Part shown: positions 1-15,625 of the stretch, piece by piece | Layout: each line of letters opens with the position of its first letter | Numbering within the stretch: the stretch's first letter is position 1 | NCBI GenBank assembly: GCA_040905465.1 | Contig: JBBDRK010000070.1 | Coordinates: 1 to 18,588, forward strand | DNA from: Trueperaceae bacterium | Lineage (GTDB): Bacteria > Deinococcota > Deinococci > Deinococcales > Trueperaceae | Length of the DNA stretch: 18,588 nucleotides | Direction of reading: 5' to 3' | The notes under the pieces: generated by a model | Database searches by the model: none | Seen by the model: only the letters and a program-made list of their open reading frames with translations | Told to the model about the DNA's origin: nothing | Position numbers and translations under genes: made by a program

Positions 1-223
1 AGTGACGCCGGTAGGTGTCGATCTTGCGCCTGAGGAGCTCCTTGGAGTAGAGGGCAGCGGTTCCGACGGCGACCTTGGCGAGGTCGATAGCGTCGTGGGC
101 AAGCTCGAGCAGGTCCTCGGCTGCCCCCAGGGGCAGTCCGAAGTCGACCATCATGGTGAGTTGGTTGTCGCGTGGTTTGGGGGTCTTCTCGCGTACGGGG
201 ATGTTGGGGTAGGCGCGATTCAT
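1..223 (-). CDS. comA: Phosphosulfolactate synthase (ComA family), N-terminal 74 aa; continues past the window edge
   Basis: Manual translation from ATG at 223: MNRAYPNIPVREKTPKPRDNQLTMMVDFGLPLGAAEDLLELAHDAIDLAKVAVGTAALYSKELLRRKIDTYRRH. It fits the ComA N-terminal pattern KPR-x3-LTM-x2-D-x-G ... EDLLE ... ID-x2-K-x3-GT-x2-LY ... LRxKI-x2-Y-x2-H. Absent from the ORF track. Confidence 0.88.
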   Translation of the reverse strand, partial: MNRAYPNIPVREKTPKPRDNQLTMMVDFGLPLGAAEDLLELAHDAIDLAKVAVGTAALYSKELLRRKIDTYRRH

Positions 224-242
224 CGGTAGCCAGAGCGGTTGC

Positions 243-264
243 GGGGCGGGCTCTCGCCCGCCCC
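243..264 (-). other. GC-rich stem-loop 3' of tctC (mRNA stabiliser or partial terminator)
   Basis: Minus strand GGGGCGGGC-GAGA-GCCCGCCCC: perfect 9-bp stem, GNRA tetraloop, 7 nt after the tctC stop, no U-tract. Confidence 0.7.
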
Positions 265-271
265 CACGAAC

Positions 272-1219
272 CTACTCCTGAATGAACCCCTGAAGGTCGG
301 CGGCCTCGCCCAGTACCCGGTCGACGATCTCAGCGTATTCGTCGCTGGGCATGAACCTGGGCGTGAGGTCGACGGCCTCGAGCTTGGCCACTACTTCCGG
401 GTCGGTGACGACATCTTCCATCGCCGCCTCGAGGCGAGCGCGGATCTCCTCGGGGACATCGGGTGAAACGGCCCAGCCGTAGTACATCCTCACGACGTGG
501 TCGTAGCCGAGGTCTTCGAGGTTGGGCACATCGTCGAAGCCGAATGCGGAGAGGTCGCCATCGGTGATGACGGCCAGCATGTTCAGCTCGCCGTTCTTGG
601 CGGCCTGCCAGGCGGGGGTACCCACGCCGGTCTCGCCGATCTCGACGTGACCTCCCAGGAGTGCGGCCGAACCTTCGGCACCGCTCTCGAACGGGATGTG
701 TACGATATTGACCCCATCTTCCTTGGCCATCGCCTTGACTACGTTGCCGGCCCAGAGCGCGCCACCGTCGGCGAAGCGCACGCGATTCTCCGCGGCGTGT
801 TCGATCAGGCCTTCGAAGTCGGAGAACGGGGCGGAAGGGTGTCCGAAGAGCACCCGCTCCTGCGGCATGTAGCTACCCAACAGGGCGACGCCGTCCATGG
901 TGAAATCGCGGTCAAGCAGGACGGTATTGGCGAAGATGTCGGTAGTTACCGCGACAATGGTGTGGCCGTCGTTCTCGCGCATGGCTTCCGAGAAGCCCAG
1001 GTAGCCGCCTGCTCCGGGCCGGTTGACTACGTCTACCCGCCCACCCAGCCTCTGCTCCAGGGCGGTGGCGAGGATCCTGTTCGACAGGTCGGTCATTCCT
1101 CCGGCGCCGTAGGGGATGACTACCGTGATCGGTTTCGACGGGAAGCCGTCCTGTGCCAGCGCCGACGGGAAAAGCAGCGTGGCCAAGGCCAGCAGGGCGA
1201 TCGAGGTTCTCTTCAACAT
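272..1219 (-). CDS. tctC: Tripartite tricarboxylate transporter substrate-binding protein (TctC/Bug family)
   Basis: Signal peptide ending ALA-Q. Motifs FPSKPITVVIPYGAGGMTD, VVNRPGAGG, DGHTI, HIPFESGAE-x3-ALLGGHV, DVPNLEDLGYD. SD AAGGAG upstream. Confidence 0.93.
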   Translation of the reverse strand: MLKRTSIALLALATLLFPSALAQDGFPSKPITVVIPYGAGGMTDLSNRILATALEQRLGGRVDVVNRPGAGGYLGFSEAMRENDGHTIVAVTTDIFANTVLLDRDFTMDGVALLGSYMPQERVLFGHPSAPFSDFEGLIEHAAENRVRFADGGALWAGNVVKAMAKEDGVNIVHIPFESGAEGSAALLGGHVEIGETGVGTPAWQAAKNGELNMLAVITDGDLSAFGFDDVPNLEDLGYDHVVRMYYGWAVSPDVPEEIRARLEAAMEDVVTDPEVVAKLEAVDLTPRFMPSDEYAEIVDRVLGEAADLQGFIQE

Positions 1220-1282
1220 GAATCTCTCCTTCGAAAAGTGAGTCGTAGTTGCGTGAGGCGTGAACCGGTTCCTGTTACCTCC

Positions 1283-2821
1283 CTATGGCTCCATTGTGGC
1301 AGGGGAGCGGGATTTTCTCTGGCGCCTGATCGACTGGTAACCCAGAAAGAGCAAGGCGAGCGCCGTCAGGATGAGGAAGGCGAGTGAAATCGGTTGCTGC
1401 AGGAATACGGTGAGGTCGCCGCCTCCCAGCAGCAGCGAGCGGCGTACCGCGGTCTCCAGCAGGGGGCCCAGGAAGAACGCGATGACCACGGGAATCACCG
1501 AGATCTTCATGAGCCTCAGGAAGTAGCCGAAGACACCGAACAGGAACATCATCGTTACGTCGAACATGTTGGTCCCGACAGCGTAGGCGCCGATCGAACA
1601 GAACATGACGATGAGCGGGAAGATGACCTCCCGGGGCAAGGTCTGGACGCGAGTCGCCAGCTTTATGTAGAAGTGCCCGACGAACAGGATGACGATGTTG
1701 GAGACGATGAGCGTGAGGAAAAGGGCGTACAGCAGGTGACCCTGGTCGCGCATCAGGAACGGTCCGGGCGTGAGGCCGTGGATCATGAAGGCGCCCAGCA
1801 GCAAGGCCGCAACGAGATTGCCGGGAATCCCGAGGGTCACCAGGGGAATAAGGTTGGCGCCCTGCACGGCGCTGTTGCCCGCTTCCGGGGCGGCGATACC
1901 TTCTTCGATCCCGGTGCCGAACTTCTCCGGCTGCTTGGACATGCGGCGCGCCGTCTCGTATGACAGGAAGGCGCCGACCGTCGCTCCGATACCGGGCAAG
2001 GCACCTATCCCGGTGCCCAGCAGGCCGGAGCGGAGCATGGTGGGGAAGAGCCTGCGGTAGTCGCGCCAACTGACGTGGCTCGTGTCGCCTGCGAGTGTCG
2101 CATCGTCTCTTGGTGGCGGCGGCGGTTCCCGGTAACGCAACTGGCTGAATGCCTCTGAGAGCACCAGCAGCCCCAGGAGCAACGGCACCAGGTTGATTCC
2201 GTCCTCGAGCGTGAGGAGCCCGAACGTGAACCGCTCGGTGGCCAGAAAATCGTCCCTGCCGACCGTTCCCAGCAGCAGGCCGATACCGATACCTATCATG
2301 CCCCGGACGGGGAACGCCCCGGTTGCCGTGGCGATGACCACCAGCGAGAACAGGATTATGGCCGAGTATTCGATCGGACCGATCTTGAGGGCGATCGCCG
2401 CCAGCGGCGCTGCCACCAGGAGGAGGATGAAGTCGCTGATCAAGTCGCCGGTTGTCGAGGCGTAGTGCGCGATCTCGAGGGCCTTCTTGCCCTCCCCCTT
2501 CTTCCGCATGGGAAACCCGTCCAAGGCGGTCGCCGTGGCTTGCGGTGTTCCCGGCATGTTGAAGAGGATCGCGGGGATACTCCCGCCAAAAGAGCCGCCC
2601 TTGGCGACGGCCATCAGCGCCACGATCCCGGTCAAGGGGTTGAAGAAGAAGGTGAACGGCACCAGCAGGGCGATTGCCATGTCGGCGGTGAGACCGGGTA
2701 TGGAGCCGAGGACGATGCCGAGAGTGACGCCTATCATCACGGCGATCAGGTTTTCGACGGTGAAGACGAGCGATAGTGCTAGTACGAGATCAGGCATCGA
2801 AGCGGGGCTTTCGCCCTCCAA
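1283..2821 (-). CDS. tctA: Tripartite tricarboxylate transporter large permease (TctA)
   Basis: Polytopic ~500 aa with repeated TctA motifs GSIPGL...GGSIPAILFNMPGTP and GALPGIGA...GIAAPEAGN...IPLVTLGIPG. Start is TTG 2821 or ATG 2797. Confidence 0.95.
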   Translation of the reverse strand: MEGESPASMPDLVLALSLVFTVENLIAVMIGVTLGIVLGSIPGLTADMAIALLVPFTFFFNPLTGIVALMAVAKGGSFGGSIPAILFNMPGTPQATATALDGFPMRKKGEGKKALEIAHYASTTGDLISDFILLLVAAPLAAIALKIGPIEYSAIILFSLVVIATATGAFPVRGMIGIGIGLLLGTVGRDDFLATERFTFGLLTLEDGINLVPLLLGLLVLSEAFSQLRYREPPPPPRDDATLAGDTSHVSWRDYRRLFPTMLRSGLLGTGIGALPGIGATVGAFLSYETARRMSKQPEKFGTGIEEGIAAPEAGNSAVQGANLIPLVTLGIPGNLVAALLLGAFMIHGLTPGPFLMRDQGHLLYALFLTLIVSNIVILFVGHFYIKLATRVQTLPREVIFPLIVMFCSIGAYAVGTNMFDVTMMFLFGVFGYFLRLMKISVIPVVIAFFLGPLLETAVRRSLLLGGGDLTVFLQQPISLAFLILTALALLFLGYQSIRRQRKSRSPATMEP

Positions 2822-2883
2822 TTCAAGAAATAGGCAGCGGGTTGGCCGCTGCTACCGTCAGGCTAAATTGCCGACACGACGCA

Positions 2884-2892
2884 TTTATACCA
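2884..2892 (-). promoter_or_regulatory. Putative extended -10 promoter for tctA-tctC-comA
   Basis: Minus strand TGG-TATAAA (TGn + TATAAA) about 60 nt upstream of the tctA ORF, in an AT-rich patch. No clear -35. Confidence 0.45.
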
Positions 2893-3335
2893 TTGTGGCC
2901 CGAGCGCTCGCCTTGGCTTGGGCGGGTGGTCAGCGGCGTCACAGCCACGTCTCATCCGTGAAGCGACGACCATACAAACGCACAGGTCCCTCCCGCGCAC
3001 CTTCAGGTAACCCGCCGATACTTCGTCGGCAAGAACAGTGCGTCGCGATGATCGAGAGGGTTCACCGCATGTTTCATGACGACTTATGGCGTCGATTTGA
3101 CACTCGTATCGTACGACGCCCACTGAGACGTCCGGCGCTCTGGTTGCCGGCCGAGCAGATCGTGCTCGTCAGGGGCGCGCAGGCTACTGTTCGCGCCGGA
3201 GTCACTCGTGAACCGGGTTTCGAGGAACCCGTAGACATTACCGCCATTCTCCTGCCAGACGGCGGACAGCTCGGTTGCCCCTCAGTCATCGAGAACGTGA
3301 AGCGAGCGTGCGTGCGATGCTCGCGAATCTACGAA

Positions 3336-4106
3336 TTACCCCAACCCGGTAATCATCGATACGATCTCGTTCTTGTCGACCGAGCTGGTCTCCCGCTCGC
3401 CCACCTGCACGCCTCGCCTGAGGACCGAGACACGGTCGGAGATGCGGAAGACCTGGTCGAGGTTGTGACTGACGACGAGTATCGCCAGGTTGCGCGCGCG
3501 TAGCGACTGGATGATCGACTCGACCTTGGCGGTCTCGGCCACGCCCAGCGCCGCCGTTGGTTCGTCCATGAGCACCAGTTTGCTGGCCCAATGGGTGGCT
3601 CTGGCTATCGCGATTCCCTGGCGCTGGCCACCGGAGAGACCCAGGACGAGCGCCTGTGCCGACGGTATCCGCACGTCCAGGTCCCTCACCTGCGTCTCTG
3701 TCTCGGAGATCATCCGCGGGCGGTCCAAGCGGCCGAAAGGTCCCTTGCTCAACTCCCGGCCGAGGAACATGTTCATGTAGACGGGCTGGTTGTCGGCCAG
3801 CGCCAGGTCCTGGTAGACGACCTCGATGCCCAGGTCGCGGGCGGAACTGGCGCTAGAGAGGGTCACCTCTTCGCCGTCGAGGAACATCTGGCCGGAGGTC
3901 GGCTGGTAGACCCCGGAGATCATCTTCACCAGGGTCGACTTGCCGGCGCCGTTGTCCCCGACAAGTGCGACTATCTCGCCGGGATAGAGGTCGAGGCTGT
4001 ACTCCTGGATGGCCACCACTCCGCCGAACGCCTTGTGGAGCTTGCGCAGGTGGAGGGTCGGCTCTCCGGACGCTACCGCTGCGGCCGCCGCTTCAGCCGT
4101 CGCCAC
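3336..4106 (-). CDS. Monosaccharide-type (CUT2) ABC transporter ATP-binding protein, single NBD
   Basis: Walker A GDNGAGKST, Q-loop VYQDLAL, signature LSGGQRQ, Walker B LVLMDEPTAALG, H-loop VSHNL. Overlaps the upstream gene by 14 nt. Confidence 0.95.
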   Translation of the reverse strand: MATAEAAAAAVASGEPTLHLRKLHKAFGGVVAIQEYSLDLYPGEIVALVGDNGAGKSTLVKMISGVYQPTSGQMFLDGEEVTLSSASSARDLGIEVVYQDLALADNQPVYMNMFLGRELSKGPFGRLDRPRMISETETQVRDLDVRIPSAQALVLGLSGGQRQGIAIARATHWASKLVLMDEPTAALGVAETAKVESIIQSLRARNLAILVVSHNLDQVFRISDRVSVLRRGVQVGERETSSVDKNEIVSMITGLG

Positions 4107-5328
4107 GGTCCCCCTGCCGGTCCGCGGGGACGCCCTGCAATTCGACGCGGTTGCCGAGTCCGTCGTAGATGCCTTCGATCTTCGCCTCGCCTCGCGATAT
4201 CCCGCTAACGCCTGCGGTGTTGGCCCTGGTGACGAAGGCCTGGGCTCGGAAGCCGAACACCACCGAGTCGCCCGGCGCCGGTCTGGAAGGACCGGAGGAA
4301 CTGTCGATCATCCCGTAGTAGTCGATAGCCGAGGGCGGGGGGATCTCCACGTCGTAGAGTCGCTCTGCCGCGACCGTTGGCTCGGAGGAAACGAGCGCCT
4401 TGACGTCGTAGGCGGGAAAGACCGGGTCGATGTAGAGGCCGCCACCGAAGCAGAAGGCGTCGCCGTGGTGCAGGTGCGAGACCTCACTCAGATAGAGGGC
4501 GGCAGGCACCTCGGGCAGATCCTCGAGGGCGTGCCAGGGGGTGGTGCCGGTGAGCCCGTGCCCCGGCTCGCACTGGGTCGCCCCGGCGGCTCGGAGAATC
4601 TCGAGAACGCTCATCGAGCTGGTGCCGGGGGCGTTGATCTCGAAGCCGGAATAGCCGGCCTCGACCAACGCCGCGGCCGCCGTCTGCAGGGTGGCGAGGT
4701 TCGGCGTCGGCTTGACCGACCGCGACTCCTGGTCGAAGAGGAGAGCCGGGAAGGTGGTGATTCCCGCGAACCGGCCGCCGGAGACACCGTCGAGCATGGC
4801 GGCGACCTCGACGATGTCGTACGCCGGGAAACCGCCTTCGTGGCCCCGGTAGAAGGTGTCTCCGGGAGCGTGGATGCGGGCCATCAGAGGCTGGTTGCGG
4901 CCGACGTCCTGGCTTGCCTGCGCCGCGGCCCTCGCTTTCTCCTCGCTGTAGACGGTCCAGTAGTCCGGCTCGAGGCGCGCCGCTTCAGCCGATTCGCTCC
5001 TCGGTATTTGCACCAGGTGGCCGAGGTGGCCTATGCCCAGTCCCGCTCGCTTGCAGGCCCGTGCTCCTGCCATGTCGACGGCGACGACCTTGTCGATGCC
5101 TCCGCGGATCAGGGCTCGGGCGAAGGCCGGGTTGCGGCCCATCTGCTTCGTCATCGCCAGGACCTCGAGGCCCAGCCGGCCTGCTTCCACCTTGATCACT
5201 CGGGCGTTCGCCTCGACGCTATCGAGGTCGATGACGAGGGTATTGGGCGGGAGCAGTCCCTGCTGGTGGAGGGATATTGCAGTTTCGACGAAGCGAGGGT
5301 TACGCCGCCTGAGGACTTCGAGGAACAC
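4093..5328 (-). CDS. yhfX: YhfX-like fold-type III PLP-dependent enzyme (alanine racemase N-terminal domain family)
   Basis: MFLEVLRRRNP...LHQQG...VIDLD...AMTKQMGRNP (predicted PLP Lys), VAVD, GHLVQIP, EPGHGLTGTTP, LYLSEVSH, CFGGG, IDYY and FRAQAFVTR all resemble E. coli YhfX as recalled. Confidence 0.88.
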   Translation of the reverse strand: MFLEVLRRRNPRFVETAISLHQQGLLPPNTLVIDLDSVEANARVIKVEAGRLGLEVLAMTKQMGRNPAFARALIRGGIDKVVAVDMAGARACKRAGLGIGHLGHLVQIPRSESAEAARLEPDYWTVYSEEKARAAAQASQDVGRNQPLMARIHAPGDTFYRGHEGGFPAYDIVEVAAMLDGVSGGRFAGITTFPALLFDQESRSVKPTPNLATLQTAAAALVEAGYSGFEINAPGTSSMSVLEILRAAGATQCEPGHGLTGTTPWHALEDLPEVPAALYLSEVSHLHHGDAFCFGGGLYIDPVFPAYDVKALVSSEPTVAAERLYDVEIPPPSAIDYYGMIDSSSGPSRPAPGDSVVFGFRAQAFVTRANTAGVSGISRGEAKIEGIYDGLGNRVELQGVPADRQGDRGDG

Positions 5329-5334
5329 TGGCGA

Positions 5335-6300
5335 TCACCTTCCTGTCTTTTCGCGGAGCGTCAGGGAGACGGCGATGAGGATGATTGCTCCGCGCACGAT
5401 CATCTGCTGTGACACCGACAGGCCCATCAGGATGAGTCCGTTGTTGAGCATGCCCATGAGCAGGGAGCCGACAAGGGCGCCCACAATCGAGCCCTTCCCA
5501 CCGAAGAGCCTGGTACCGCCCACGATCACGGCGGCGATCACCGTCATCAGGTCGGTTTCGCCGAGGGTGTAGCGCGCCGCCTGCAAGCGGCCCGCGTAGA
5601 GAAGGCCGGCCAGGGCCGCTGAGCTCGAACTGATCACCAGCACCAGGATCCGGATCCGGTCCACCCGGATCCCCGACACCCGGGCGGCTTGGCGGTTGTC
5701 CCCCGTAGCGAGGACATGGGCGCCGAACTTCGTCTCCCTGTAGACGAGGTGCCCGACGGCGACGATGCCGACAGTCCAGATCACCAGCGATGGGATGCCG
5801 AACAGCGAGCCCGAGCCGAACAGGTTGTTGAAGGTGGAGTTCAGGACGGATACCGATCGCAAGTCCGTCAGGGTACGAGCGACTCCGGCGATGAGCCCCA
5901 TCATCGCCAGCGTTACTAGGAACGACGGGAGCCGGAGCTTGGTCACGAACAGTCCGTTCACCAGGCCCACCGCCGCACCGGCGCCAAGGCCCGCCAGTAC
6001 GCCGACGATGAGTGGATAGTCCTGAAGGACGACTGCAGATATCAGGGCAGACAGTGCTACGACCGAGCCGATGGAGAGGTCGATCTCACCGGCGGTGAGT
6101 ACGAAGGCGAAGCCGACGGCCATGACGGTTATCGGTGCGGCCTGCCGCACGATGTTGAGCAGGTTGCGTGTAGTCAGGAAACCGTCGTCCCAGAGGACGG
6201 CGGCGAAGAATGCCAACACCAGCAGGAACCCTACGTACACTACGTAGCGGCTGGGGTCGATACGTCTGAGTCGGCTTCCCAACACTCCTGCGCCCTTCAT
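5335..6300 (-). CDS. Sugar ABC transporter permease (RbsC / BPD_transp_2 family)
   Basis: FLTTRNLLNI, GEIDLSIGS, GLVNG, LPSFLVTL, GDNRQAARVSGI, IAAVIVGGT-x2-FGGKGS; many transmembrane segments. Confidence 0.95.
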   Translation of the reverse strand: MKGAGVLGSRLRRIDPSRYVVYVGFLLVLAFFAAVLWDDGFLTTRNLLNIVRQAAPITVMAVGFAFVLTAGEIDLSIGSVVALSALISAVVLQDYPLIVGVLAGLGAGAAVGLVNGLFVTKLRLPSFLVTLAMMGLIAGVARTLTDLRSVSVLNSTFNNLFGSGSLFGIPSLVIWTVGIVAVGHLVYRETKFGAHVLATGDNRQAARVSGIRVDRIRILVLVISSSSAALAGLLYAGRLQAARYTLGETDLMTVIAAVIVGGTRLFGGKGSIVGALVGSLLMGMLNNGLILMGLSVSQQMIVRGAIILIAVSLTLREKTGR

Positions 6301-6398
6301 GTGTGCGCTCTCGAGGAATGCGCTCCTAAAGGATTCGCCTTCGAAGGATATCTGTGCCGCGGGCTGGACATGAGAGCGGAAACGCTAAATAGGTGAGT

Positions 6399-6424
6399 TG
6401 GGGCGTCCTAAGACGGACGCCCCA
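6399..6424 (-). other. Stem-loop between binding-protein and permease genes
   Basis: Plus strand TGGGGCGTCC-TAAGAC-GGACGCCCCA: perfect 10-bp stem 9 nt after the binding-protein stop. No U-tract on the minus strand. Confidence 0.7.
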
Positions 6425-6433
6425 GGAATGCGA

Positions 6434-7495
6434 TTACTCTATCGCGCGAAGGATCGACTGGGGCGGCTCGCGGTTGAGCGACTCCTGATAGCCTTCCTCG
6501 ATGTTCGCGGTGGTGATGGTCAGCGCCGGAGCCACGATGAAGGGTGGTGCTTCCTTGTCGAGCAGGCCGTAGGCCGCCGTGGTGGCCATGGTGCGGCCGA
6601 GCTCGTAGGCGGCGTCCGCCACGATGGCAACTACGTTTCCACCACGGACCATGTCGAGTGCGATCGGCTCGCTGAGGTCGAGGGTAACTATCTTGGTCGA
6701 GGCGTTGCCCTGAGAGCGCAGTGCGGCCAGGAAGCCCTCGGCCGGCTCCGCCCAAGTGACGTAGATGCCGCCCAGGTCCGGGTTGCGGATCAGCAGCGCC
6801 TGGGCGATCTCCTCTGCCCGGGCGGGGTCGGCGATTCCCGCGGAGTCGACGATCTCGATGTTCGGGTAGTCGTTCTCGATGGTCGTCTTGAAGGCGTTGT
6901 CCCGCTGGTTGGTCACGTAGTACTCGGCGTCGTGAAAGACGAAGGCGACCTCGCCCTCCTCGCCCATGGCGCTCGCCAGGGCGTCCGCCGCCTGCTTGCC
7001 CATCTGGAAGAGGTCGTCGGTTACGGTTGCGACGAAATCCTCACCCTGCTCGTAGCCGGCGGCGGTGTTCGACAGGAATACCAGTTGAACACCCTCCTCT
7101 ACCGCCTCGCGGAACGCCTCGGCGGCAACGACGGCATCGAGCGGAAGCGAGAGGATGACGTCCGGACCGCGGGTCATCACCGTCTCCACGTCGCTCCTCT
7201 GCCGGGCGGCATCGAACTGGGCGTCGGTCGTGGCGACTACCTCGATGCCCAGGCGCTCGAACTCGTCGGTCGCGCCCTGCGACACCGCATTTATGAAGTC
7301 GGACGAGGTGTGCCAGACGAATGCGGCGGTGTAGTCACCCTCCCTTACCTGGACGACCTCCTCCTCGGTGAGGGTTATCTCGGCCGAAAGTGTGGCCGGC
7401 TCTCCGTTAGGGCCGGTGGTCTCGGTCTGCTGGGCGAGTGCGGCGGCAAGCGTGCCGGCGAGGAGCAATGCAACAAGATGCCTGAAGAGTTTCAT
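6434..7495 (-). CDS. Sugar ABC transporter substrate-binding protein (RbsB-like periplasmic binding protein type 1)
   Basis: Signal peptide ending ALA-Q; TDAQFDAARQ, PDVILSLPLD, MGKQAADAL, RDNAFK, NPDLGGIY; adjacent to the permease. Confidence 0.92.
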   Translation of the reverse strand: MKLFRHLVALLLAGTLAAALAQQTETTGPNGEPATLSAEITLTEEEVVQVREGDYTAAFVWHTSSDFINAVSQGATDEFERLGIEVVATTDAQFDAARQRSDVETVMTRGPDVILSLPLDAVVAAEAFREAVEEGVQLVFLSNTAAGYEQGEDFVATVTDDLFQMGKQAADALASAMGEEGEVAFVFHDAEYYVTNQRDNAFKTTIENDYPNIEIVDSAGIADPARAEEIAQALLIRNPDLGGIYVTWAEPAEGFLAALRSQGNASTKIVTLDLSEPIALDMVRGGNVVAIVADAAYELGRTMATTAAYGLLDKEAPPFIVAPALTITTANIEEGYQESLNREPPQSILRAIE

Positions 7496-7510
7496 GCCAA
7501 TACTTCCTCT

Positions 7511-8761
7511 CTACTGCTTAGAAGGAACGACACCGCAATAGTCGGCCATGAAGGCGGCAAGTGCGACAATTCCGGAACTGTAGTCGGCCAGATTCACCCT
7601 CTCCTCTAACGTGTGGCAGTTTCGGATATCACCGGGCGCGAAGTAGATGGTAGGAATGTCGAGGTTCGTCAGGAAGGGCGCTTCCGACCAGTAGGGGGCG
7701 CCGGAAACGCCAGCGCGGCCCTCTGCCGCCTCGTTTACCGCTTGGAGGAGCTTTGTGATCGCCGGATGCCGCGGGTCGACCTCCGTGGGCGTCCCCCCGA
7801 ATCGGTTGTCCCTGCCAGCGGGAAACCGGATGTCCACCGAGATCTCGGGGTCGTTCACGGCCGACCTGACCACCTTCTCGAGCTCTGCTGCGGCGGAACC
7901 CAGGTCCTCGCCGGGGAGAAGCTTGCGGATCAGCGAGAGCCTGCACTCGCCCGGAACGGCGATGTAGCCGCCGGAGTTCATCTCCGTCACCAGCAGGAAC
8001 GACTTGCCGACGAGCTCGTGCTCGGCCCGACCTGCCAGGTCGTCCGAGTGCGCCCAAAGGTGGTCGAGCACGGCGTGACCCGCCCTGAGGGCGTCCCTGC
8101 CCAGCTCGGGAAACCCGAAGTAGGCGGACCGGCCCTTGATCTCGATCTCGGTGATGAAGAATCCCATCTGGGCGCTGTAGACCTCCAGGTTGGTGGGTTC
8201 TAGATAGATGGCGAAGTCGGGTCGGCGGAGTTTGCCCTTTTCGATCAGGGCCGCGAACTCCTTCATTCCGGCGCTCACTCCCATGCCCGGCTCGCCGCTC
8301 TCCTCGTCGCCGATGAACGCGAGCTGCACGTCGCCGGCCAGTTCGATGCCGGCTCGCTCGAGGAGCTTCACGGCCGATATGGCGGCGCAGATTCCCGCCT
8401 TGAGGTCTCCGGCGCCGCGTCCCCAGATCTCTCCGTTCTCGATCGCTCCGCTGAAGGGGTCTTCGCGCGTGGTGCCCGCCCAGCGCTCCTTCCAGCCGTC
8501 GACGTGAACCGTGTCGGTGTGGCCGACGAGAAGGAGGTCCTTTCCGCCACCTTCACTGCGGACCACGCCCCAGACGTTGGGCCGCCCGGCTTCGAACTCC
8601 CGTTGCTCGATTCCCGACGCGGGAAGATTCTTCAGTTCATCGGCGAGGAACCCGGCGAAGCCGGCCTCGGTCCCGGTGATGCTGGGGGTGGCGATCGCTC
8701 GCCTGAGCAGATCTACCGCCTCCGCTTCATCCAGGTGCCGGCGAAGTTCCGAAGCGTTCAT
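7511..8761 (-). CDS. M20 family metallo-amidohydrolase (ArgE/DapE-like deacylase)
   Basis: Metal-site motifs GHTDTV, GRGAGDLK, DEE, LEPT and C-terminal CHTLEE; TPSITGTE; ATGA overlap with the ROK stop. Confidence 0.92.
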   Translation of the reverse strand: MNASELRRHLDEAEAVDLLRRAIATPSITGTEAGFAGFLADELKNLPASGIEQREFEAGRPNVWGVVRSEGGGKDLLLVGHTDTVHVDGWKERWAGTTREDPFSGAIENGEIWGRGAGDLKAGICAAISAVKLLERAGIELAGDVQLAFIGDEESGEPGMGVSAGMKEFAALIEKGKLRRPDFAIYLEPTNLEVYSAQMGFFITEIEIKGRSAYFGFPELGRDALRAGHAVLDHLWAHSDDLAGRAEHELVGKSFLLVTEMNSGGYIAVPGECRLSLIRKLLPGEDLGSAAAELEKVVRSAVNDPEISVDIRFPAGRDNRFGGTPTEVDPRHPAITKLLQAVNEAAEGRAGVSGAPYWSEAPFLTNLDIPTIYFAPGDIRNCHTLEERVNLADYSSGIVALAAFMADYCGVVPSKQ

Positions 8762-9969
8762 CCGCTGCTACTGACTGGCGCCATGGTCAGAGTCGGTACC
8801 GCCGGTACCGAGGTGATCAGGCCGCTGCCGTGGGTGAGCCGGTGGAGCTCTTCGATGCCGTAAGCGAGGGCTCCTTCGATCCCGGCGCGCCTTCCCAGGC
8901 TGCTCGCTTCGACGACGGGGGGTCGGCGCATGCACTCCTCCAGCTTCCTCCTGATGCGCTCGAGCAGCTCGGGTCTGCCGCCGATGCTGCCGCCGAAGAT
9001 CACCTTCTCGGGGTCGATCAGGGCGGCGGTAGCGGCTACCCCCAGAGCCAAGCGGGAGCCGATCTCGTCGAGCACCAGGGCGGCTCTCCTCTCTCCGTCC
9101 TCTGCCCGCTGGAACAGCTCCCGGACCGTCTCGCACTCGCCACCCTCGTCCCGGTAGAGGCGGAGTATGGCCTTGCTGCCGACGGCCGACTCGAAAGCGC
9201 CGACCGATCTCGCCTGTTCGGTGAAAGGATCGGTGCAGAGCGGCAGGTAGCCTATCTCTCCGGCCGTGCCGCTCGCGCCGCGGAGCAGCTTGCCGTCCAG
9301 CATTATCCCCTGGCCGATTCCAGTGCCCAGGGCGATGAAGACGAGGTCGTCGACCCCCTGCCCTGCGCCGCGCCACCTCTCGCCGATGACCGCGAGGTTC
9401 ACGTCGTTCTCGACGATGACCGCGATGCCCAGGACATGGCGCAGCTCGTCCTCTACGCGTAGTCGATCGAAGCCGGGTATGTTGGGTGCGAACTCGATAA
9501 AGCCGCTGACAGGATCTACGACACCTGGCGTGCCTACCACGGCCAGACGTACCTTCTCCCAGCCGGCAGCCGGCCGTTCCGCCAACCTCCTGCATATCTC
9601 CGCAATCTGGGCGATTATCTGCGGGCCGCCCCGAGGGCTGGTGGGTACGGTCTCCTGCGCGACCAGATCGCCCGTCATGTCGGCGAGGGCCACGGTCAGG
9701 CTGGTTCCACCCAGGTCGACTCCGACGATGTAGGCGGAGTCGGGGACGATCTGGTAGAGGACGGCGGAGCGGCCGACCTTCCCCTTCGACAGGCCGGTCT
9801 CCTCGATCCAACCGGTCTCCTCAAGCAGCCTGACGATCTCGGACGACGTCTGCTTGGACAGGCCGGTCTCGCGCGAGATTCCGGCTCGAGAGATCGGTCC
9901 CTTCTCGAGGATCGCCGTCATCACTGCGTGAGTAGAAACCTGCCTTGAGATCGAGTTGCGCCGCTGCAA
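8758..9969 (-). CDS. ROK family transcriptional repressor (HTH + sugar-kinase-like domain)
   Basis: N-terminal HTH (GPISRAGISRETGLSKQT), VGVDLGGT, VENDVN, GTGIGQGI, AGEIGY. TTG start with GGAGG 6 nt upstream. Confidence 0.95.
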   Translation of the reverse strand: MQRRNSISRQVSTHAVMTAILEKGPISRAGISRETGLSKQTSSEIVRLLEETGWIEETGLSKGKVGRSAVLYQIVPDSAYIVGVDLGGTSLTVALADMTGDLVAQETVPTSPRGGPQIIAQIAEICRRLAERPAAGWEKVRLAVVGTPGVVDPVSGFIEFAPNIPGFDRLRVEDELRHVLGIAVIVENDVNLAVIGERWRGAGQGVDDLVFIALGTGIGQGIMLDGKLLRGASGTAGEIGYLPLCTDPFTEQARSVGAFESAVGSKAILRLYRDEGGECETVRELFQRAEDGERRAALVLDEIGSRLALGVAATAALIDPEKVIFGGSIGGRPELLERIRRKLEECMRRPPVVEASSLGRRAGIEGALAYGIEELHRLTHGSGLITSVPAVPTLTMAPVSSSG

Positions 9970-12868: not shown

Positions 12869-13201
12869 TAGGCCCGGATCCGCCGCTGGCTGGGCACGTT
12901 CAGCTCCCGGACCTTCCCCCGGTCTGGTTACCAGTCGCCGGCGCCGTCGACGAACGTCTACCTCAGGTCGGCGTGTCGACCCTGGCCATCATCTTCATCC
13001 CGTTCGACTTGGCCGGTCGACCGGGTGTATGTTAATCTCAACAGCTGCACCCGAAAAGCCAATTGTGCCCCCATTCCAGTGATCACGGGAACACGTGGCG
13101 GAGAAACCGCGACCCAGCCGCGACACGCGTCACAAGTTCGTCTCGTGCCACCGTCAGTCGTTCGCTCTCTGAAAGTGGCAGTCGTTACGAGAGGAGACTG
13201 G

Positions 13202-15625
13202 ATGAGCACCTTCGGAATCAGTAACGCGTCGAGATGGTCGTGGAGGCCGAGCGGCAAGCGAGTTCTCTTCGCTTTGTCGCTATCCCTGTTCCTGGTCGCC
13301 TGTGCGCAGGAGGGTGCTTCGGGAAGCGACAGCGACAGCGCGGTCGACGCCGACCACCCGCGGCTCTGGGTCACCGCCGCCGACGTACCCAGGCTGCGGG
13401 CTTGGGCGACTAGCAACAATCCGATCTACCAGCAGGGGCTCAAGCCGTTGGCGGAGGAGGCCAAGGAGGCGATGGACGCCGAACTGGTGCCCGGCGAGGA
13501 TCATGGCGGTAACACCTGGGTGGAGTACCCCAGCGAGATGTACGCCGAACTGTTCGCGTTCATGTCGCTGATAGAGGCCGATCCGGACGATCGGCAGGAT
13601 TATGCGGAACGTGCTCGCACCCTCCTCATGTACGTTATCGACGAGGCGGCCAAGGGTCAGGCGGCGGACCAGCCTTTCAGGGACCCCGAGTTCGCCACCA
13701 GCGACAGGTCGCGCTGGTGGGGCGAGTCCTTCGCGCTCACCACCGACTGGATCTACCCGCACCTGAGCACGGGCGACAAGGCGACCATCCGGCAGGTCTT
13801 CCTCAGATGGGCCGATGAGAACGAGCGTGCCGAGATAACGGCATTCAATCATCCGGAGCCGAGTGGCGTGCTGAACGATCCCGTGCTGGTGGAGGATCCC
13901 ATCGCCGTCCGCTGGGCGGCCAACAACTACTACACCGCCCACATGCGGAGCATCGGCCTGATGGCGATGGCGCTCGATCCGGAGGACGATCCGGGCGGCG
14001 AGTTGCGCTCTCACCTGGCGAGCGCCACCGGTGCCTGGCTGTACGTGATCGATCACCTGTTGCGCAACGACGGCAGCGGCGGGCTCGGCGCCGAGGGGTT
14101 CGAATACAGCCCGCAGTCGCTGGGCTACGTGGCGCAGTTCATGCTGGCGTTGCAGAGTGCCGGGGAGGATGCCAACGCAACCGAATGGGGACCGCAGGTG
14201 GTGCTCGCGGACAACCCCTTCTGGGGGCAGGCGGTACCTGCTTACCTGCACTCGCTGAGCCCGGAGCCCACCGTCTTTCCGGAGATCGATTGGCGGGGAG
14301 AGGTGTATCAGCCTGCCTGGTATGGCGAGGGGCAGGATTACCTGGCCGCCGACTTCATGGAGTTGTTCGGCCCGTTGGGCCTGTACCGGATGGCCGAGGG
14401 CGACCAGGATGGCCTGGAGGCGATCCGCTGGCTGCAGACGCACGTTCCGCCGGGGGGCGAGGGTACGTTGGTCGAGCGGGTGGAAGACGCTGAAACCTTC
14501 CGCGACGCCATCCTCTACTTCATGCTCTTCGACACGTCGGAGGCGGCGCCGTCAGATCCACGGCCGGCACTGGATACCACCCACTACGCAGAGGGAATCG
14601 GAAGGTTGCTCGCTCGCACCGATTGGAGCGAAGAGGCCAGTTGGTTCACCTACTCGCTGGGCTGGACCACCATCGATCACCGGCACGGCGACGGAAACAC
14701 GTTCGAGTTCTACCGGAATGGCGAGTGGCTGACCAAGGAGCGCACCGGTTACGGGCCCAATATCAGCGCGTCCGATTACCACAACACCATCGCTCTGGAG
14801 AACGATGCCCCGGATCACAACTCGCCGTCGGACTACCGGCACAGTCTGTGGCAGCGTGGATCGCAGTGGGTCTACGTAGCGAGCGGTGACGGGCGAGTCG
14901 TGGACATGAGCCTGGCGGACGACTTCGTCTACGCGCTGGGGGACGCCACCGATCTCTACAACTCCGAGTACGAGTTGTCCACCGACATCCTCCACGCCAG
15001 CAGGTCGATAATCTGGCTGAAGCCCGACCGGATCGTGGTGTTCGATCGTGCGCGGTCCCGGACGGCTGAGCGGTTCAAGCGCTTTTGGCTGAACCTTCCC
15101 ACCGATCCGGTGATCGACGGCAAGCTGTCGGTGGCGACTACCGAGCAGGGTCAACAGCTCTTCGTCACCACGCTGCTGCCTGCCGACGCAGTGGTCACGG
15201 GCGAGCCGGCGGAGGCGCTGGAGGAGGACGGCGAGCCCGCGAACAACGAGCCGATGAACTACCGACTGCGGGTGGAAGCGCCCGGTGGACCGCAGGAGGC
15301 GAACTTCCTGCATGTTCTTCAGGGAGCCGATGCGGGAGCGGTGGCCGACGCAGTCGAACTGGTGCAGAGCGAGTCCGGAACCAGCTTCACAGGTGCCGTG
15401 TTCGGCGAGACCGTCGTGCTGTTCCCGGTCGACCTGGACGAGTCCTTCGACCGGCTCAGCTACCTGGTCCCGGCGGGCACGGTGCGGCATCTGATTACCG
15501 GGCTCACTCCCGGCGCTGCCTTCGAGGTCAGCAGCGAGGCGACCGCGCAGGGCCTGCGGGTGATCGTGCAGCCCGGGGCTGGGTCGAGTGCGGATGACGG
15601 TGGGGTGTTGGACCTGGGGTTCTGA
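13202..15625 (+). CDS. Lipoprotein with heparinase II/III-like polysaccharide lyase architecture (~807 aa)
   Basis: ATG 13202 after GAGGAG; lipobox LVA-C; HPRLW; helical region with NNYY and EGFEY; beta region ARTDW, DHRHGDGNTF, WLTKERTGY, YHNTI; C-terminal FLHVLQ and LITGLTPG. Confidence 0.7.
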   Translation: MSTFGISNASRWSWRPSGKRVLFALSLSLFLVACAQEGASGSDSDSAVDADHPRLWVTAADVPRLRAWATSNNPIYQQGLKPLAEEAKEAMDAELVPGEDHGGNTWVEYPSEMYAELFAFMSLIEADPDDRQDYAERARTLLMYVIDEAAKGQAADQPFRDPEFATSDRSRWWGESFALTTDWIYPHLSTGDKATIRQVFLRWADENERAEITAFNHPEPSGVLNDPVLVEDPIAVRWAANNYYTAHMRSIGLMAMALDPEDDPGGELRSHLASATGAWLYVIDHLLRNDGSGGLGAEGFEYSPQSLGYVAQFMLALQSAGEDANATEWGPQVVLADNPFWGQAVPAYLHSLSPEPTVFPEIDWRGEVYQPAWYGEGQDYLAADFMELFGPLGLYRMAEGDQDGLEAIRWLQTHVPPGGEGTLVERVEDAETFRDAILYFMLFDTSEAAPSDPRPALDTTHYAEGIGRLLARTDWSEEASWFTYSLGWTTIDHRHGDGNTFEFYRNGEWLTKERTGYGPNISASDYHNTIALENDAPDHNSPSDYRHSLWQRGSQWVYVASGDGRVVDMSLADDFVYALGDATDLYNSEYELSTDILHASRSIIWLKPDRIVVFDRARSRTAERFKRFWLNLPTDPVIDGKLSVATTEQGQQLFVTTLLPADAVVTGEPAEALEEDGEPANNEPMNYRLRVEAPGGPQEANFLHVLQGADAGAVADAVELVQSESGTSFTGAVFGETVVLFPVDLDESFDRLSYLVPAGTVRHLITGLTPGAAFEVSSEATAQGLRVIVQPGAGSSADDGGVLDLGF

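Follow-up and report, generated by a model that had tools for sequence, protein, structure and literature searches.

A divergent ComA-family enzyme encoded within a conserved carboxylate importer operon of a Trueperaceae bacterium

ComA is known as the sulfonate-making enzyme of coenzyme M and sulfolactate synthesis. Its relative XcbB of Xanthobacter was shown to add sulfite to phosphoenolpyruvate (PEP; PMC9457059), and SlcHFG, a tripartite tricarboxylate transporter (TTT), is described as the importer of 3-sulfolactate in Roseovarius nubinhibens, Chromohalobacter salexigens and Taurinivorans muris (PMC5812351, PMC10507020). Here we describe a locus of a Trueperaceae bacterium in which a ComA-family gene stands among TTT genes. 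The stretch analysed (the window) is the complete contig C70 (JBBDRK010000070.1, 18,588 bases) of a genome of 81 contigs (3.53 Mb, 95% complete), and its positions 1-2821, which hold tctA, tctC and the beginning of the ComA-family gene (comA), form the upstream end of an operon of five genes, tctA-tctC-comA-tctB-DUF3604. The module joins a new form of a known enzyme family to a conserved uptake system that is itself uncharacterised: the ComA form that it encodes, which we call type II, differs from the described enzymes in a defined set of motifs, and a literature search (with supplementary gene tables outside its reach) returned nothing on catabolic ComA or on a module of type II ComA and TTT genes.

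A comA gene inside a TTT operon

The three window genes all lie on the minus strand with gaps of 63 nt between tctA and tctC and of 48 nt between tctC and comA, exactly as in an earlier description made from the bare sequence (the original prediction), which had also remarked correctly that the track of open reading frames (ORFs) misses comA; the gene appears only among the open-ended ORFs because its ORF runs off position 1, where it is cut because the window is a whole contig. The remainder of comA lies on contig C25, whose last 55 nt repeat the first 55 nt of the window letter for letter and whose comA part stays in the frame of the window part (Table 1). Directly behind it come tctB, whose first in-frame start (TTG) shares 4 nt with the comA TGA, and a DUF3604 gene, whose GTG start is preceded by GGAGG and lies 31 nt beyond the tctB stop. 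This tight packing of tctB and DUF3604 behind comA places comA inside the TTT operon, all three transporter subunits being encoded at one locus, TctA and TctC in the window and TctB on C25. The DUF3604 gene has two runs of N inside, its ends being intact, and the gene beyond it on C25 is convergent on the opposite strand. A 1538-nt contig from run X1 spans window positions 1-246 plus 1292 nt further, although X1 is probably the source sample itself and its contig therefore gives no independent support for the C25/C70 join. No comB, comC, kinase, TauE or dehydrogenase gene lies within the five-gene unit. The original prediction had proposed looking beyond position 1 for a kinase, a sulfite exporter (TauE) or a dehydrogenase on the one hand and comB/comC on the other; what is found there is tctB and a DUF3604/PHP hydrolase gene, so that the lack of comB/comC agrees with its catabolic view, whereas the kinase, exporter or dehydrogenase that this view called for is missing from the operon.

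ComA-family genes are rare in this group: with this genome counted each time, a protein search found them in 3 of 41 genomes of relatives and a family search in 6 of 301 from the phylum. A Trueperaceae metagenome-assembled genome (MAG; locus L007) carries the same five genes in the same order (75, 67, 64, 34 and 66% identity) between flanks unrelated to those of the window and C25, and in a synteny comparison with two same-genus genomes the flanks match only across short ATP-binding cassette (ABC) motifs. A motif-based scan of one genome per species, built from an alignment of close ComA homologues, gave 47 loci, with TTT genes beside comA at seven and a DUF3604 gene beside it at eight. Neighbours in this first scan were annotated from ORFs at most 5 kb from comA, picked by a greedy length rule (401 ORFs from 44 loci, some of them spurious) and clustered, and the 253 cluster representatives were scanned against Pfam.

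The binding protein ties these loci together more closely than the membrane subunit does. The window genome has four TTT loci in all, and for seven of seven foreign ComA-linked TctC proteins the best match is the window TctC (192-379 bits versus 109-129 bits for the next paralogue). TctA proteins, unlike TctC, show no consistent best match to the window system, and the TctC proteins beside another ComA type (in Paracoccus and Bradyrhizobium, see below) match a different paralogue. A second scan, run over the whole collection with two signature motifs from an alignment of ComA-linked TctC, gave 46 loci; ComA adjoins the TctC orthologue in 24 of them (seven of these 24 contigs were already in the first scan) and DUF3604 is present at 12. 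Going by the record titles, the ComA-TctC pairs extend over six phyla (Deinococcota, Alpha-/Betaproteobacteria, Thermodesulfobacteriota, Spirochaetota, Rokubacteria and Methylomirabilota). The orthologue group to which the window TctC belongs is small and co-occurs with type II ComA. When 77 ComA-family sequences (leaving out the partial window protein, three fragments and seven duplicates) were placed in a maximum-likelihood tree, the TTT-linked genes formed four separate well-supported subclades inside the type II clade, so that the association is either old or has been re-formed repeatedly, and in either case is functional, not accidental. Type II comA is also plasmid-borne and its distribution is patchy. 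With four TTT loci in the genome, ComA genes being rare and the arrangement recurring elsewhere, the pairing of importer and ComA is not a matter of chance. The linkage that the original prediction had noted is thus conserved, and tighter than could be seen from the window, with comA between tctC and tctB; the neighbourhood survey that it proposed recovers tct linkage both in L007 and across the TctC loci, and the sequence patterns that it named as counter-evidence, an unconserved linkage or comB/comC downstream, were not encountered.

Type II ComA and its DUF3604 partner

To compare type II with the described enzymes, 63 family members were aligned and five motif blocks were read. The type I set comprises XcbB, the M. 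jannaschii and B. subtilis proteins of solved structure, Brevibacillus and Legionella genes and three metagenomic proteins, and the type II set (46 sequences) the window, all 44 first-scan loci and two plasmid genes. Type I proteins read K-[LF]-[AG]-[FW]-G-T at strand 2, GGT at strand 3 and SDG at strand 4, whereas type II proteins read A-K-[IV]-A-V-G, GGQFLE and SDN. After strand 6, type I has E-x-R-[EQ]-S-G plus a loop of 6-7 residues and type II has E-A-[A/K]-E with the loop deleted; after strand 7, type I has FEAPxK without insert and type II has FELPGxWIxG with 11 extra residues. Both the loop deletion and the 11-residue insert are found in 46 of 46 type II sequences, and neither the Arg of E-x-R-E-S-G (0/46, five having Lys) nor the Lys of FEAPxK (0/46) occurs in any. 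The strand-6 site of the window enzyme reads FEAAEFYED, without the E-x-R-[EQ]-S-G loop, and its strand-7 site reads FELPGSWIAGISASDVHDMQ, with the 11-residue insert and no FEAPxK Lys; at strand 2 the original prediction had rightly seen AVGT in place of GxGT (KVAVGTAALY in the window, canonical FGWGT). Type II keeps the strand-end K, E, E-x-S-D, E-x-G-x-K, E, E, N-x-x-N and R.

The full-length ComA orthologue of L007 scores 166.6 bits against TIGR03849, the equivalog model of archaeal ComA, which has a cut-off of 280. The P0002 protein, 76% identical to the C25 part, was modelled in place of the contig-split window protein (predicted local distance difference test, pLDDT, 90.5), giving a (beta/alpha)8 barrel with template modelling (TM) scores of 0.83/0.86 to 1qwg (root-mean-square deviation 2.9) and best matches to 1QWG/1U83 (TM 0.79-0.91), in which both altered sites lie at the C-terminal ends of strands 6 and 7, on the catalytic face. 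The nearest folds after the ComA structures belong to the PEP mutase/isocitrate lyase superfamily (petal death protein, oxaloacetate decarboxylase, dimethylmalate lyase and methylisocitrate lyase). It appears that the enolate chemistry has been kept and that the pocket for one anionic group, most simply phosphate, has been rebuilt. Judged by its sequence, the window enzyme is not a canonical phosphosulfolactate synthase (EC 4.4.1.19), and no pathway partner of that enzyme (ComB/ComC, XcbC-E) was found nearby, the downstream genes being tctB and DUF3604. The fallback offered in the original prediction, a divergent ComA acting on another substrate, is its better-supported half.

The family as a whole is small, with 957 representatives out of 1.84 billion at E <= 0.001 and 66 at E <= 1e-30, and the label "phosphosulfolactate synthase" is attached to every homologue named by a source. 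When the 150 best library representatives were typed crudely by regular expressions, 50 came out as type II-like and 35 as type I-like, and 65 could not be assigned. A third ComA type (EQSE or other variants, no Arg) was seen on plasmid pTAV3 of Paracoccus versutus (L073), on a Bradyrhizobium guangxiense plasmid (L074) and in L064 (G012), beside MmgE/PrpD, PrpF, TcuA and TTT or SsuA-like ABC genes; its members are likewise labelled "phosphosulfolactate synthase" and their context looks like tricarboxylate catabolism. A Legionella lytica plasmid (L072, 3859-6771) encodes a 971-aa protein, annotated as phosphosulfolactate synthase, whose type I ComA domain is only its C-terminal part, followed by ComB.

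The DUF3604 protein was examined through the L007 orthologue (743 aa), which has no signal peptide and is thus cytoplasmic. Its model, built from 44 sequences (pLDDT 91.7), has a core (about residues 290-530) that matches the PHP phosphoesterases 3E38 and 2ANU with Foldseek probability 1.0 and is flanked on both sides by beta-sandwich domains; a partial match to the NCBIfam CehA/McbA metallohydrolase model (E 6.5e-11) stays below the cut-off. DUF3604 has at least 4794 homologues, and in a literature search no functional study of it was evident. In L012, L032 and L035 the comA and DUF3604 genes are direct neighbours, whose ends often overlap or nearly abut, and within one ComA subclade the partners alternate: L102 and L105 have a sulfatase, their proteobacterial sisters DUF3604 and L083 both. 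Near the DUF3604 gene, C25 (L003) also carries an ORF that runs off the contig start and contains GDTHVHF, a motif characteristic of PHP/amidohydrolase metal sites; it has no Pfam match at E 0.01, adjoins a NIF3-family gene and a sugar-type ABC importer, and would by its motif be a candidate second PHP-like protein.

Gene neighbourhoods and the function of the module

Type II comA also occurs within other importer families. L008 has it embedded in an SsuA-like ABC system (in the order binding protein, ATPase, comA, permease), SBP_bac_5 ABC systems accompany it in L053, L038 and L040 and a tripartite ATP-independent periplasmic (TRAP) system in L010, and on plasmids of the cultured bacteria Chelativorans sp. 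AA-79 and Arthrobacter sp. ERGS1:01 it stands at the head or tail of ABC importer operons. Sulfatase-family genes are frequent neighbours (13 genes in 12 first-scan loci), one following comA directly in nine syntenic Chloroflexota loci and in L042, and L102 and L105 have the order comA, sulfatase, tctB, tctA, tctC. An apparent ComA-sulfatase fusion in L102/L105 was rejected as an artefact of ORF picking, the two genes lying in different frames. The sulfatases that were read have CxPxR (CxAxR in L042 and in one G004 gene) and no signal peptide, which would have them act in the cytoplasm on something imported. In a Geminicoccaceae MAG (L077, 1-13762), a TctC orthologue (52% identical), TctB and TctA stand amid five sulfatase-family genes, without ComA; of these, four or more carry CxPxR and three or more are clearly without a signal peptide, which suggests cytoplasmic desulfation of an imported sulfate ester.

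Further sulfur genes include an ATP sulfurylase gene and a 3'-phosphoadenosine-5'-phosphosulfate (PAPS)-reductase-family gene between comA and tctCBA in L048, the nearest non-Trueperaceae relative of the window ComA, TctC and TctA, a sulfotransferase in L053, a SulP carrier beside the SsuA-like binding protein of L008, and a split SAF/GD_AH pair resembling SuyAB beside type II ComA in L047 and L045/L088. Other neighbours resemble enzymes of C4-dicarboxylate or sugar-acid pathways: a LarA relative nearest to malate racemases, LutABC-like proteins, MR_MLE dehydratases, a D-2-hydroxyacid dehydrogenase, hydroxyaspartate-type pyridoxal-phosphate (PLP) enzymes, a type II haloacid dehalogenase and fumarate-reductase-like flavoproteins. 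Regulators beside the relatives are of the GntR/UTRA, GntR/FCD and LysR types. Since GntR- and LysR-type regulators are common at catabolic operons, catabolism fits better than coenzyme synthesis.

The fumarate-reductase-like flavoprotein is present at 19 of the 46 TctC-orthologue loci, all in Desulfobacterota or SAR324 and mostly without ComA. In Desulfospira joergensenii DSM 10085 (L091, 3603-12353) the operon consists of a fumarate-reductase/AprA-like flavoprotein, a GltD-like Fe-S flavoprotein, tctC, tctB and tctA, together with a GntR/UTRA regulator and a PLP enzyme resembling Thr/Ser dehydratases; this flavoprotein-TctC arrangement is shared by 18 further loci among L090-L116, with ComA inserted in L090, L096, L114 and L116. 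Kinase-family genes were found near comA at five of the 44 mapped first-scan loci (L009, L022, L030, L031, L037) and are of APH-type, PFK and GHMP families, L030 having both APH and GHMP. The only kinase that recurs near the clade is of the GHMP family and lies within two genes of type II comA (L030, L031, L037), with a PPS_PS gene (phosphopantothenate-synthetase family) between it and comA in L037; on the Arthrobacter plasmid, annotated glycerate and carbohydrate kinases lie 6 kb from comA. No kinase was found at the TTT-linked loci, that is, in the window operon, in L007 and at the 24 TctC-linked loci as far as these are annotated.

Elsewhere in the window genome no PAPS-reductase-family or sulfite-reductase (NIR_SIR) match was found, a negative that is weak because a 3.8-kb contig breaks off at the sole ATP sulfurylase gene; the lack of a visible internal sulfite source is a weak hint at a sulfite producer over a sulfite consumer. 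Two ComB-family genes lie on contigs other than those of the comA operon, and members of the ComB family are present in Thermus, Deinococcus and Synechococcus too, in which the family search found no ComA. ComB-family, TauE and sulfite-oxidase-like genes are present in the genome but widespread in control genomes as well, and so decide nothing.

From all this we infer, tentatively, a substrate class, a direction of reaction and a role for DUF3604: in the reading that we prefer, with somewhat less than even confidence, type II ComA is a lyase whose substrate is a sulfo- or sulfato-carboxylate that has been imported and not phosphorylated, and DUF3604 handles an ester on the same compound. The TTT would import an anionic carboxylate with a sulfur oxyanion group, candidates being 3-sulfolactate, sulfosuccinate or another C4 analogue, and a hydroxy-acid that carries an O-sulfate. 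The Mg2+-stabilised enolate chemistry of the ComA family would run in the lyase direction on the unphosphorylated substrate, so that the ComA-like enzyme eliminates sulfite (or sulfate) and leaves pyruvate or an enoate, and the DUF3604 hydrolase would cleave an ester group off this substrate or off a precursor. A catabolic or scavenging account is the simplest in view of the importer embedding, the co-inherited TctC, the regulators, the alternating cytoplasmic ester hydrolases and the loss of the type I motifs. The argument in the original prediction that an importer upstream fits catabolism accordingly survives in its importer-coupled, non-biosynthetic flavour, to which regulators and embedding lend weight, but not in its phosphorylation route (see below). 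A bolder form of the proposal, which we consider distinctly improbable, is that type II ComA and DUF3604 strip sulfur oxyanions from imported acids in an undescribed manner that needs Mg2+ but no organic cofactor: the former would be a new class of sulfo-lyase, releasing sulfite directly from an unphosphorylated sulfocarboxylate and so adding a fourth route to those of SuyAB, of Xsc/CuyA and of the glycyl-radical lyases, and the latter a PHP-fold ester hydrolase standing in for formylglycine sulfatases.

Several observations weigh against a sulfur-stripping lyase. The sulfite-making genes right behind comA in L048 favour a sulfite-consuming, synthetic direction, which this locus fits at least as well as the catabolic one, although a lyase could be accommodated there if sulfatase-derived sulfate and ComA-derived sulfite both fed assimilation. 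Much of the wider context is C4-dicarboxylate- or sugar-acid-like and not specific to sulfur, and the species that host SlcHFG are not among the 46 TctC-group loci. The phosphate-binding role that we infer for the lost Arg and Lys is not itself an observation. The partner hydrolases belong to fold classes familiar chiefly from phosphoesterases (DUF3604 to PHP, the sulfatases to the alkaline-phosphatase superfamily), which would suit a phosphosulfolactate phosphatase. Finally, a stem-loop separates tctC from comA.

Some of these points feed an account in which type II ComA is still a phosphosulfolactate synthase that serves biosynthesis or sulfite fixation, DUF3604 or a sulfatase-family protein replaces ComB, and the TTT imports something else or a sulfur source. 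It gains from the PHP phosphoesterase core of DUF3604, from the adjacency of comA and DUF3604 (L012, L032, L035), which mirrors that of canonical ComA and ComB in Brevibacillus and Legionella, from the retained core acid/base residues (K, E, E-x-S-D, E-x-G-x-K, N-x-x-N, R) and from L048, whose comA directly precedes the sulfate-assimilation genes, an arrangement that we take to be like that of the B. subtilis yit genes. It is nonetheless unlikely in our view, given that comA is embedded in several unrelated importer families with a co-inherited binding protein, that GntR/LysR regulators are nearby, that the type I motif set is lost, that two ComB-family genes lie elsewhere in the genome, from a family also present in organisms without a ComA match, and, weakly, that PAPS-reductase and sulfite-reductase matches are lacking; L048 and the phosphoesterase folds of the partners are what keeps it from being less likely still. 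A substrate without sulfur, which we hold to be improbable as well, would make the enzyme a lyase, hydratase or isomerase of an imported C3-C6 hydroxy-, di- or tricarboxylate and the sulfur genes mere background in sulfatase-rich phyla. The PEP mutase/isocitrate lyase superfamily as nearest fold, the third ComA type beside PrpD, PrpF, TcuA and TTT genes (Paracoccus, Bradyrhizobium, G012), the flavoprotein at 19 of 46 TctC loci, often without ComA and with a GltD-like protein next to it in L091, and the recurring LarA-like, LutABC-like, MR_MLE and hydroxyaspartate-type enzymes all agree with it. It has against it the cytoplasmic sulfatases that stand beside comA or TctC in at least five unrelated lineages, in several cases on the same strand with overlapping or near-abutting ends (L102, Chloroflexota loci), as well as the SsuA-like binding protein, ATP sulfurylase/PAPS reductase, sulfotransferase and SulP genes, which point to sulfur, and to our knowledge all characterised members of the ComA family use sulfite.

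The route favoured in the original prediction, in which sulfolactate is imported and phosphorylated by a kinase and ComA then splits phosphosulfolactate into PEP and sulfite, is in formal terms the known reaction turned round and shares the importer linkage, and a GHMP kinase near comA in three loci together with an APH-type kinase after comA in L009 could supply the phosphorylation. We judge it very unlikely: no kinase occurs in the operon, in L007 or at the TctC-linked loci as far as annotated, those seen belong to differing families at only five of the 44 mapped loci, the conserved partner is a phosphoesterase-fold protein and not a kinase, and the two cationic residues (Arg and Lys) and the Arg/Ser-Gly loop of the compared phosphosulfolactate-forming enzymes are missing. 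That comA is a chance neighbour, transcribed alone and unrelated to the transporter, is close to refuted. The stem-loop between tctC and comA (-28.8 kcal/mol) and the lack of a clear Shine-Dalgarno sequence for comA would fit it, but tctB, which the transporter requires, lies behind comA and overlaps its stop codon, L007 has the same order, ComA is adjacent at 24 of 46 TctC loci, and the hairpin has no U tail and was missed by the terminator scan.

Features of the locus and comparison with described systems

The stem-loop behind tctC may be an mRNA-stabilising or attenuating element of the sort that commonly follows binding-protein genes; at the same place behind tctC, L007 has a different, stronger hairpin (-47.5 kcal/mol, z -5.5). 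A promoter/terminator scan of positions 1-3600 gave one promoter-like site (0.8 expected) and four terminator-like sites (2.0 expected), with no site between tctC and comA and the tctC stem-loop not called, and no Rfam family matched across the window plus C25. Upstream of tctA, 514 nt contain no convincing gene and show no conservation with L007 (no relative was found for an 86-aa ORF within them), and the minus-strand genes that follow could form a cluster for the use of amino acids or amino sugars, with no relation to the comA operon. An 866-aa ORF further into the window was compared with an 867-aa ComA neighbour in Chloroflexota, and the two are unrelated.

Table 1. Features of the window and of contig C25 (G000:C25)
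Feature	Coordinates	Strand	Remarks
comA, first 74 codons, open at window edge	window 1..223 (ORF 2..223)	-	PF02679, E 8.9e-17, profile positions 2-64 of 243, 61.8 bits (gathering cut-off 25.2)
G+C-rich stem-loop from tctC stop codon, without U tail	window 237..272	-	-28.8 kcal/mol, z -2.2
tctC, periplasmic binding protein	window 272..1219	-	315 aa, PF03401, E 4.8e-24
tctA-tctC spacer, 63 nt	window 1220..1282	-	AAGGAG before tctC ATG; no stable fold (-9.2 kcal/mol, z +1.9)
tctA, TTT large membrane subunit	window 1283..2821	-	512 aa, PF01970, E 1.6e-138, profile 1-423 of 423; start read as TTG, ATG 8 codons downstream
Region upstream of tctA	window 2822-3335		514 nt
Terminator-like hairpin, T-rich tail	window 2834-2852	-	13 nt upstream of tctA TTG
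ABC ATPase, YhfX-like PLP enzyme (Ala_racemase_N + YhfX_C), BPD_transp_2 permease, M20 peptidase, ROK-family regulator	window 3336-9969	-	
866-aa ORF	window 13025-15625	+	no Pfam match at E 1e-6
comA, remaining part	C25 8617..8003	-	PF02679 positions 47-240, E 4.5e-43, 147.9 bits
tctB	C25 8006..7527	-	PF07331, E 2.3e-12
DUF3604 gene	C25 7495..5622	-	PF12228, E 6.2e-12
GDTHVHF ORF	C25 3-1367	+	454 aa

Type II ComA is a separate clade defined by clear sequence markers, with its genes in uptake operons and a binding protein co-inherited across six phyla, and offers a testable case for a new function in the ComA family as well as a first lead to the function of DUF3604. Should the enzyme release sulfite, the organosulfur cycle of sediments, soils and sulfite-respiring Desulfobacterota would gain a further route; otherwise the case would show how far automatic "phosphosulfolactate synthase" labels mislead.

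SlcHFG resembles the window system in being a TTT tied to an organosulfonate pathway, with tctB after tctA (PMC5812351, PMC10507020); it sits with the dehydrogenases SlcC/ComC and the lyase SuyAB, whereas the window TTT sits with ComA, and its hosts R. nubinhibens and C. salexigens, compared by species and not by SlcH sequence, are not among the 46 motif-scan TctC loci. With ComA/XcbB/YitD (PF02679; 1QWG, 1U83), type II shares the Pfam family, the fold and the strand-end residues, at about 30% identity and below the equivalog cut-off, but reads SDN, GGQ and AVG in place of SDG, GGT and GWG, and it neighbours importer genes and hydrolases where those enzymes neighbour ComB/ComC or XcbCDE; the type I comA genes of Brevibacillus and Legionella have an annotated ComB next to them and both type I motifs. 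SuyAB, Xsc, CuyA and IslA are enzymes whose folds and cofactors are unrelated to ComA, and the likeness lies in the proposed outcome, sulfite from a small sulfonate after uptake; since a SuyAB-like pair co-occurs with type II ComA (L047, L045/L088), the two are not simple substitutes. The DUF3604 core, for its part, is like the PHP phosphoesterases (3E38, 2ANU) and the CehA/McbA proteins by fold, and the DUF3604 protein differs from them in its length of about 740 aa, its beta-sandwich domains on both sides of the core and its cytoplasmic location.

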